A DNA stretch of 64,000 nt, taken from the NCBI RefSeq assembly GCF_009931435.1, contig NZ_CP043414.1, one strand, 5' to 3'. The position numbers are program-made. The stretch is from Escherichia coli (GTDB taxonomy: Bacteria > Pseudomonadota > Gammaproteobacteria > Enterobacterales > Enterobacteriaceae). Below are positions 21,001 to 24,000 of the stretch, in pieces; positions within the stretch are counted from its first letter, which is position 1; every line of letters starts with the position of its first letter.

Positions 21001-24000
21001 AACTTACCACTACGAGGTCAACTGTCTGGAATATCGTCCTGGCACGGGGGTTCCGGTTACTGGTGGCATGTATGTTCCACAGTATACGCAACTAAGCCTT
21101 AACGCCGACACGGCAAAAGCGATGGTGCAGGCTGCGGATTTAGGCACCAACATTCAGCGTCTGTATCAGCATGAGCTCTACTTCCGGACCAATGGTCGCA
21201 AAGGTGAGCGTCTGAGCAGCGTCGATCTGGAACGTCTGTACCAGAACATGTCGGTCTGGCTGTGGAATAAAATTGAATATCGCTATGAAAACGACAAGGA
21301 TGACGAGCTGGGCTTTAAAACGTTCACCGAGTTCCTGAACTGCTACGCCAACGATGCCTATACTGGCGGCACGCAGTGTTCTGATGAGCTGAAAAAATCG
21401 CTGGTCGATAACAACATGATCTACGGCGAGAAGAGCGTTAATAAAGCGGGCATGATGAACCCGAGCTATCCACTCAACTATATGGAAAAACCGCTGACGC
21501 GCCTGATGCTGGGCCGTTCCTGGTGGGATCTGAACATTAAGGTTGATGTGGAGAAGTATCCGGGAGCGGTATCTGTAGGGGGAGAAGAGGTTACTGAAAC
21601 CATCAGCCTGTACTCGAATCCGACCAAATGGTTTGCAGGTAACATGCAGTCAACTGGCCTGTGGGCACCGGCTCAGAAAGAGGTCACCATTAAGTCCAAT
21701 GCGAACGTTCCTGTGACCGTCACCGTGGCGCTGGCTGACGACCTGACCGGACGTGAGAAGCATGAAGTTGCGCTGAACCGTCCGCCAAGAGTGACTAAAA
21801 CGTACTCTCTGGACGCTAGCGGTACGGTGAAGTTCAAGGTGCCTTACGGTGGCCTGATTTATATCAAGGGCAACAGCCCACAGAATGAGTCAGCCGAATT
21901 CACCTTTACTGGTGTGGTGAAAGCGCCGTTCTATAAAGATGGTGCATGGAAAAACGCTCTGAACTCCCCTGCGCCGTTGGGCGAGCTGGAGTCAGACGCT
22001 TTCGTCTACACCACGCCGAAGAAGAACCTTGAGGCCAGCAATTTCACTGGTGGCGTAGCAGAATTCGCTAAAGATCTGGATACCTTTGCCAGCTCGATGA
22101 ATGACTTCTACGGTCGTAATGATGAAGACGGTAAGCACCGGATGTTTACCTATAAAAACTTGACGGGCCACAAGCATCGTTTCACCAACGATGTGCAGAT
22201 CTCCATTGGTGACGCGCACTCTGGTTATCCGGTGATGAACAGCAGCTTCTCGCCGAACAGCACCACGCTGCCGACGACGCCGCTGAACGACTGGCTGATC
22301 TGGCATGAAGTAGGGCATAACGCCGCAGAAACGCCGCTGACTGTTCCAGGCGCGACCGAAGTGGCGAACAACGTGCTGGCGCTGTACATGCAGGATCGCT
22401 ATCTCGGCAAGATGAACCGTGTTGCTGACGATATTACCGTTGCGCCGGAATATCTGGAGGAGAGCAACGGTCAGGCATGGGCGCGCGGCGGTGCGGGTGA
22501 TCGTCTGCTGATGTACGCGCAGCTGAAGGAATGGGCTGAGAAAAACTTTGATATCACTAAGTGGTATCCAGAAGGTAACCTGCCTAAGTTCTACAGCGAT
22601 CGTGAAGGGATGAAGGGCTGGAACCTGTTCCAGTTGATGCATCGTAAAGCGCGCGGTGATGAGGTTGGCGACAAAACCTTTGGCGGCAAGAATTACTGTG
22701 CTGAATCCAACGGTAACGCAGCGGACACGCTGATGCTGTGTGCCTCCTGGGTCGCCCAGACGGATCTTTCCGCATTCTTTAAGAAATGGAATCCGGGCGC
22801 GAATGCTTACCAGCTGCCGGGGGCGAGCGAGATGAACTTCGAGGGCGGTGTGAGCCCGTCGGCTTACGAGACGCTCGCGGCGCTTGGTCTGCCGAAACCG
22901 CAGCAAGGGCCGGAAACCATTAATCAGGTTACCGAGCATAAGATGTCAGCCGAGTAAGCCCGTAGGCCGGATAAGGCGCTTGCGCCGCATCCGGCATGAA
23001 ATAAGGCGCACCGGGTCAACACATTTGCCCGATGCGCCAGCTTATCGGGCCTACAGACAGGGAAAGCCGTGATTATTTTCGCTGGCAGACACCCGTAGGC
23101 CGGATAAGGCGCTCGCGCCGCATCCGGCATGAAATAAGGCGCATTGGGTTAACACATTTGCCCGATGCGCAAGCTTATCGGGCCTGGAGGAAAGCCGTAT
23201 GGCATACACCTGCAGGCCCGCATCCGGCAAGTTACAACAAATAACCTTTAACCATGCTTTTTGATGTTTTTCAGCAATACCCTGCGGCGATGCCCATACT
23301 GGCAACCGTCGGAGGATTGATCATCGGCAGTTTTTTGAATGTGGTGATTTGGCGTTATCCCATCATGATTCGCCAACAAATGGCGGAGTTTCACGGTGAA
23401 ATGCCGAGTGCGCAGTCAAAAATAAGCCTGGCGCTGCCGCGTTCGCACTGTCCGCATTGTCAGCAGACCATCCGCGTTCGTGACAATATTCCGCTGCTCT
23501 CCTGGTTGATGCTCAAAGGGCGCTGCCGTGATTGTCAGGCGAAAATCAGCAAGCGTTATCCGCTGGTCGAGTTATTGACAGCACTCGCTTTTTTGCTGGC
23601 GAGTCTGGTCTGGCCGGAAAGTGGATGGGGGCTGGCGGTGATGATATTATCCGCCTGGCTTATTGCCGCGAGCATCATCGACCTTGATAACCAATGGCTG
23701 CCCGATGTTTTTACTCAGGGCGTATTGTGGACAGGACTGATTGCGGCATGGACGCAACAGAGTCCGTTAACGCTACAAGACTCAGTTACCGGCGTCCTGG
23801 TGGGATTTATCACTTTTTACTCCCTGCGCTGGATAGCCGGAATAGTTCTGCGTAAAGAAGCATTAGGCATGGGCGATGTATTACTCTTTGCCGCGTTAGG
23901 TGGCTGGGTGGGCGCGTTGTCGCTGCCCAATGTGGCTTTAATCGCCTCATGCTGCGGCCTGATATATGCCGTTATTACAAAAAGAGGATCAACCACACTG

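Follow-up and report, generated by a model that had tools for sequence, protein, structure and literature searches.

Repetitive extragenic palindromic (REP) sequences in the malE-malF intercistronic region were reportedly described by Newbury et al. in 1987, with differential mRNA stability as their proposed role. The malE-malF REPs stand between the gene for a high-expression periplasmic or secreted product and the genes for low-abundance membrane machinery of the same operon. The REP array between sslE and pppA that is the subject of this study is placed in the same way, although the genes and the REP arrangement differ and its role at sslE is one that we infer. The array lies in a stretch of 64,000 nucleotides (nt) of Escherichia coli DNA (NCBI RefSeq assembly GCF_009931435.1, contig NZ_CP043414.1), the whole of which is called the window. 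The nearest model with experimental results is REP325, located in yjdM-yjdN and the source of naRNA4, which likewise is a tandem array of y and z2 REPs between co-oriented genes of one operon. REP325 stabilizes the mRNA upstream of it, and the gene downstream is attenuated about 8- to 10-fold; a partial Rho dependence was seen with the full array only and was absent with fragments of 2-4 hairpins (bioRxiv 10.64898/2026.03.23.713779). The y REP sequence of REP325 is identical to the y REP consensus, and the y half of the naRNA4/REP325 model is matched perfectly in the array described here. However, REP325 has six units with 12 hairpins and short linkers, whereas the sslE-pppA array has four intact hairpins. 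Also, stabilization and attenuation were demonstrated by experiment for REP325, while at sslE-pppA they are drawn from analogy.

The sslE-pppA array is a REP array of the bacterial interspersed mosaic element (BIME) type inside the sslE-pppA-yghG-gspC-M operon, between the gene of a secreted substrate and the genes of the secretion machinery. By comparison with the systems above, it probably favors the expression of sslE over that of pppA and the gsp genes, through mRNA protection and partial attenuation and without full separation of the two sides. The sslE open reading frame (ORF) spans 18377-22957 (1,526 codons, from ORF calling and the RefSeq annotation of near-identical records), and its product is named a lipoprotein metalloprotease in those records. 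The pppA ORF has 269 codons, starts with the ATG at 23254 and is annotated there as a prepilin peptidase. The gap between the two genes is 296 nt long (22958-23253). A repeat search identified a direct repeat of 94 nt in this gap, at 22959-23052 and 23092-23185, with 95% identity and a period of 133 nt from start to start. In each unit, a 30-nt linker joins a y-type REP to an inverted z2-type REP (iREP), after which comes a spacer. In addition, the 12-mer CCGCATCCGGCA occurs a third time at 23218-23229, beyond the two 94-nt copies. The array comprises about 2.2 units of the 133-nt period and covers 93% of the gap. An earlier note on this DNA had described two tandem copies of a composite REP/BIME unit filling the gap. 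Both copies are present and the two consensus strings it gave match letter for letter; its composite unit was correct in that the REPs form a duplicated BIME, but the repeat is longer than it described. Missing from the earlier note were the REP 4 nt past the stop codon, the degenerate third REP, the variable copy number and the IS621 target. The features of the locus are as follows.

22955..22957, plus strand: sslE stop codon TAA, the end of ORF 18377-22957 (sequence, ORF and RefSeq annotation of near-identical records)
22962..22996, plus strand: y-type REP of unit 1 in GTAG orientation, 33/35 to the reverse complement of the published y consensus; GTAG at 22962-22965, stem from 22966, predicted hairpin of -20.9 kcal/mol, perfect match to the y half of the Rfam naRNA4 consensus
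22997..23026, plus strand: tail-to-tail linker of unit 1, 30 nt, containing GGCGCACCGGGT, which repeats the left arm of the next z2 REP imperfectly and in inverted orientation
23027..23054, plus strand: z2-type iREP of unit 1, ending in CTAC, 25/29 to the z2 consensus, predicted hairpin of -13.5 kcal/mol
23044-23054, plus strand: exact IS621 target ATCGGGCCTAC in the z2 iREP of unit 1, occupied by an IS621 insertion in strain RMDEC465
23055..23094, plus strand: head-to-head spacer 1, 40 nt (sequence and alignment)
23095..23129, plus strand: y-type REP of unit 2, 32/35 to the y consensus, predicted hairpin of -20.9 kcal/mol
23130..23159, plus strand: tail-to-tail linker of unit 2, 30 nt (sequence, repeat search and Rfam comparison)
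23160..23187, plus strand: z2-type iREP of unit 2, ending in CTGG and not CTAC, 23/27 to the z2 consensus, not an IS621 target
23188..23211, plus strand: head-to-head spacer 2, which is spacer 1 minus 5 nt and 11 nt (alignments)
23212..23229, plus strand: remnant of a third y REP, GCAGGCC joined to CGCATCCGGCA across an 18-nt internal deletion (aligned with the intact third y REP of other strains)
23230..23253, plus strand: unique short leader before the pppA ATG, conserved in all alleles

The intact third y REP used for the alignment was that of K-12, O43, O55:H7 and O169:H41. The remnant in the window no longer forms a hairpin (-4.1 kcal/mol, z = +0.67). The leader, agttacaacaaataacctttaacc, occupies the 24 nt before the pppA ATG; it is near-invariant across alleles and has no obvious Shine-Dalgarno sequence. 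From 100 shuffles of the window, the number of y-REP and z2-variant patterns expected was 0.00, so a chance origin of these patterns is excluded. The 296-nt allele was also found in two independent complete genomes, 2013C-4282 (99.4%) and 2020CK-00188 (96.2%), and thus the array is not an assembly artefact. The Tandem Repeats Finder program reported no array at the sslE-pppA gap, presumably because there are only about two copies and these contain indels; the array was instead defined by the direct-repeat search and by alignments.

The REP elements were scored against the published consensus of the three E. coli REP types, taken from PMC11208160. The y REPs carry GTAG at 22962 and 23095, and both iREPs scored better against the z2 consensus GCCTGATGCGCTACGCTTATCAGGCCTAC than against y or z1. 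In the z2 REPs of this array, the loop is shorter by 1 nt and a T:A pair of the stem is replaced by C:G, a compensated change. BIME-2 elements are tandem copies in which y and z2 REPs alternate in orientation (PMC3333891), and this alternation is present at sslE-pppA. The array also resembles the BIME-2 and atypical BIME arrays of E. coli (Gilson/Bachellier; PMC3333891) in its extragenic position, between the sslE stop and the pppA start, in its GTAG/CTAC tetranucleotides, in the good conservation of the tandem copies within the locus, and in a copy number that varies among strains. It differs from canonical BIME-2 in the loop and stem of its z2 REPs and in its linker, which is not the short S linker; a z2 arm is partly repeated in it, in inverted orientation, and its length of 30 nt compares with about 13 nt for the REP325/naRNA4 consensus. 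Because of this linker length, the array is classed from its sequence as BIME-2-like or as an atypical BIME, and the atypical assignment fits better than canonical BIME-2. The 40-nt spacer 1 shares 26 of 41 positions with the head-to-head spacer that another BIME of the window has near 51457-51497. The unit is also widespread, matching at least 21 places per genome (median at least 40) across 5,425 genomes.

The earlier note had also proposed that the array binds integration host factor (IHF), and this claim is not supported. IHF sites are a feature of the L linker in BIME-1, an element of y and z1 REPs present in single copy (PMC3333891). No match to the IHF consensus WATCAANNNNTTR with one mismatch or fewer was found in the array; the best match had two mismatches and fell below the background rate. 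A BIME-1 (RIB/RIP) element was ruled out by the z2 rather than z1 partner, by the tandem rather than single-copy arrangement, and by the lack of an IHF consensus. A small RNA (sRNA) gene was considered because Rfam RF02564 (naRNA4), a model built from REP325 as a BIME-2 array, gave hits on both strands, with scores of 38.3, 36.2, 31.6 and 30.5 bits. All are well below the gathering threshold of 59.5; the y REP matches the model perfectly, but the 30-nt linker, in place of one of about 13 nt, keeps the scores low. These scores reflect the shared y REP only, and the idea of a stand-alone sRNA was discarded. Neither a sigma-70 promoter nor an intrinsic terminator was predicted in a scan of 22500-23700, and on this result both a terminator of that kind and an internal promoter for pppA were discarded. 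The REP hairpins are not followed by a T run. The absence of a predicted terminator and sigma-70 promoter in the gap fits an element internal to an operon. With the sub-threshold naRNA4 hits in its favor, an identity as an IHF-binding BIME-1, a stand-alone sRNA gene or a promoter is extremely improbable. Small ORFs of 62-84 amino acids overlap the array within REP sequence and are unannotated in every RefSeq record examined.

In enterotoxigenic E. coli (ETEC) H10407, sslE and the 13 genes downstream of it, pppA-yghG-gspC-M, are treated as one polycistronic operon (Yang 2007, as cited in PMC5012682 and PMC3707838). The operon is repressed by H-NS and StpA, according to what PMC5012682 and PMC3707838 relate of it. 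H10407 carries a 197-nt allele of the gap. Since its operon is polycistronic, the array is not a full transcription stop or insulator, at least in the 197-nt form. The suggestion of the earlier note that the array insulates sslE from the gsp genes therefore fails for full insulation, while stabilization of sslE mRNA or a partial insulation from gsp is plausible by analogy. The REP hairpins in the operon mRNA would block 3'-to-5' exonucleases, so that sslE-only products of decay or termination would outlive the distal gsp message. The long, structured and untranslated gap could also cause partial attenuation, partly Rho-dependent. The net effect would be a quantitative tilt toward sslE over pppA and gsp, with the genes not fully separated. 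The second unit would at most modulate the stabilizing and attenuating effects quantitatively. Across the genome, tandem gene pairs with an intervening REP are skewed toward the upstream gene (bioRxiv 10.64898/2026.03.23.713779). A bias of this kind would suit an operon in which a secreted substrate is followed by low-abundance machinery. Just downstream of the array, at 23200-23297, the ratio of C to G is 1.6; this tract is compatible with Rho loading, although as a rut-like signal it is weak. No paper in the library searched joins yghJ with repetitive extragenic elements, and the supplements of PMC3333891, PMC4550694 and PMC12306157 have no yghJ or pppA entries.

The whole 321-nt region has a predicted fold of -144 kcal/mol (z = -6.4 versus shuffles), and as separate hairpins the y REPs are predicted at -20.9 kcal/mol and the z2 REPs at -13.5 kcal/mol. 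In the linkers (22997-23039 and 23130-23172), GGCGCAYYGGGT repeats in inverted form the left arm (GCCCGATGCGCC) of the z2 REP that comes next. This inverted copy is imperfect and gives an alternative predicted hairpin. In the predicted minimum-energy fold of the whole unit, the two separate REP hairpins give way to this linker hairpin and to a long-range stem in which the 5' arm of y pairs with the 3' arm of z2. The inverted copy in the linker may be a remnant of half a REP.

The position of the first REP raises the possibility of an effect on translation. This REP begins 4 nt past the sslE stop (8 nt to the stem) and could slow the termination of sslE translation. REPs less than 16 nt downstream of a stop codon are reported to lower the translation of the upstream gene (Liang et al. 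2015, as cited in PMC12306157), and the first REP is within this published limit as PMC12306157 gives it. The array could then act mainly at the level of translation, with the first REP stalling terminating ribosomes and leading to mRNA cleavage, transfer-messenger RNA (tmRNA) tagging and a lower yield of SslE. The junction of stop codon and REP is conserved in all aligned alleles, in agreement with this explanation. However, it depends on the first REP alone and is silent on the duplication. It is also able to coexist with an mRNA bias rather than replace it. As the main function of the array, a translational effect is possible but rather doubtful.

Alternatively, the array could act mainly on DNA, as a strong gyrase site of the BIME-2 kind that relieves or insulates supercoiling between sslE and gsp. 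Gyrase binding by the array, also proposed in the earlier note, is plausible by analogy: the y REPs are paired with z2 REPs, and gyrase cleavage in vivo is over-represented in BIME-2, preferentially in the y REPs (PMC6379681). Only a subset of BIME-2 elements is cleaved, however, and cleavage avoids H-NS-bound regions (PMC6379681), while the sslE operon is silenced by H-NS/StpA (PMC5012682). The linker of 30 nt is also not the short S linker of canonical BIME-2. For these reasons, a function chiefly at the level of DNA would be quite improbable.

The array was then compared among strains, using 5,426 complete E. coli genomes. The locus was found in 3,620 of these by the pppA 5' region. The gap sizes observed and their content were as follows.

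129 nt: N50; linker and z2 left arm deleted
163 nt: 14EC020; one unit and a decayed y REP
197 nt: K-12 and ETEC H10407; one unit and an intact y REP
296 nt: the window, 2013C-4282 and 2020CK-00188; two units and a decayed third y REP
326 nt: O43, O55:H7 and O169:H41; two units and an intact y REP
459 nt: O157:H16 Santai; three units
733 nt: E200086; five units

The earlier note had proposed a comparison of copy number among strains. That comparison places its two-unit duplication as one state in a range of about 0.5 to 5 units. To count the alleles of at least two units, a junction query was used at a strict E-value cutoff, for which a full-length match is possible only in such alleles. Counting by coverage was rejected because one-unit alleles align twice to a duplicated query, which inflates coverage. 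Only 136 genomes had two or more units, with up to four unit junctions in one genome. Strains with flanks 99% identical to the window have either two or five units; close relatives differ in unit number, and thus copy number changes among close relatives. For example, the sslE 3' end and pppA 5' end of E200086, with its five-unit array of 733 nt, are 99.1-99.5% identical to the window. The same five-unit array of 733 nt, deduced from coordinates, is present in Z0117EC0005, E400634 and E500002, whose flanks are also 99.1-99.5% identical. Two of the five units in the 733-nt array have a 4-nt insertion in the y loop. All ten aligned alleles, and at least 1,910 genomes, have a y REP immediately after the sslE stop. 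For the yghJ-pppA gap of K-12 MG1655 (NC_000913.3), RefSeq lists coding sequences only, with no repeat_region or REP, yet three REPs are clearly present; the yghJ product is named "putative mayloidogenic protein" (sic) in that record.

The two-unit state is old. Unit 1 of the window has 1-4 differences from its counterparts at first or internal positions in other strains and 6 from unit 2 of the window, while unit 2 carries the CATYGGGTTAAC signature, as does the last unit of other strains. Since each unit resembles the units at the same position elsewhere more than it resembles its neighbor, the sequence comparison indicates that the duplication is old and did not arise recently in this genome. 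The single unit of K-12 and H10407 is a hybrid, with the unit-1 signature CACC (CACCGGG) and the unit-2 signature TTAAC. This suggests that it descends from a two-unit ancestor by an unequal crossover that fell within the linker and removed one repeat. The one-unit alleles are probably derived from the two-unit state, as judged from these signatures. Unequal recombination or slippage between units is the most likely source of copy-number variation, and the REP-associated transposase TnpA-REP is a possible one.

The target of IS621 is the 11-mer ATCAGGCCTAC or ATCGGGCCTAC, with a CT core, and the ATCGGGCCTAC variant is a perfect match to the target-binding loop of the IS621 bridge RNA (PMC11208160). 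The copy of ATCGGGCCTAC at the end of the unit 1 z2 REP is the only exact IS621 target in the window. In strain RMDEC465, IS621 is inserted exactly at this site with CT on both sides (...TTATCGGGCCT[IS621]CTACAGACAGG...), and it separates sslE from pppA and the gsp genes. In the RMDEC465 record, the sslE gene upstream of the insertion is annotated as a partial pseudogene. A target within a REP and a natural insertion with a duplicated CT core agree with the IS621 sites described previously (Choi 2003; Durrant 2024, PMC11208160). In the window, by contrast, the site is empty, and unit 2, with its CTGG end, has no target.

Several observations weigh against the proposed bias toward sslE. First, REP effects are strongly context-dependent, and terminal REPs do not generally prolong mRNA half-life (bioRxiv 10.64898/2026.03.23.713779). 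Secondly, copy number and spacers vary freely, with indels, a decayed third REP and an IS621 insertion, which argues against a strong constraint on any dosage-dependent function. Third, no compensatory substitutions were found in the linker hairpin among 20 units. Lastly, read-through of the operon is documented only in H10407, with its 197-nt allele.

A serious rival to this bias is that the array is an effectively neutral repeat in a non-essential gap, with no meaningful effect on sslE or gsp and a copy number that drifts by recombination or slippage. Gap lengths span 129 to 733 nt, REPs and spacers have lost internal bases, and the third REP has been destroyed in the window allele. The IS621 insertion is tolerated in one genome, and close relatives with 99% identical flanks have two or five units. 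REP effects are also often absent, depending on context (bioRxiv 10.64898/2026.03.23.713779). However, the conserved y REP directly after the sslE stop speaks against a neutral repeat, complete silence is unlikely for stable hairpins in a transcribed gap, and the upstream-biased expression of REP-separated tandem gene pairs is genome-wide. A neutral array is a tentative explanation, and a bias of expression toward sslE remains the one that we favor.

Other REP and BIME elements were identified elsewhere in the window, as follows.

43819-43897: z2 iREP, 18-nt spacer and y REP (y copy at 43868)
47060-47089: degenerate y-like REP
51434-51530: C:G-variant z2 REP, as in the sslE-pppA array, with a 35-nt spacer and a y-like REP
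57599-57627, minus strand: lone z2 REP

The array is an ordinary member of a well-described class of repeats, and the idea that it affects mRNA stability or insulation is reasonable but not new. REP/BIME arrays, their copy-number polymorphism among strains, their targeting by IS621, and their behavior as stabilizers and attenuators in operons have all been described already. The point specific to this locus is that the operon encodes SslE, a mucinase, colonization factor and vaccine candidate, together with its dedicated secretion system. Differences in SslE level among strains (PMC5012682) could in principle be linked to the array allele. A further, speculative and unlikely suggestion is that the number of BIME units is a heritable and fast-changing setting of the ratio of SslE to the type II secretion machinery. 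If so, lineage-specific expansion and contraction of the array would tune secretion capacity with the coding sequence and the promoter unchanged, and insertion of IS621 at the built-in target would tune this capacity or cut it off.

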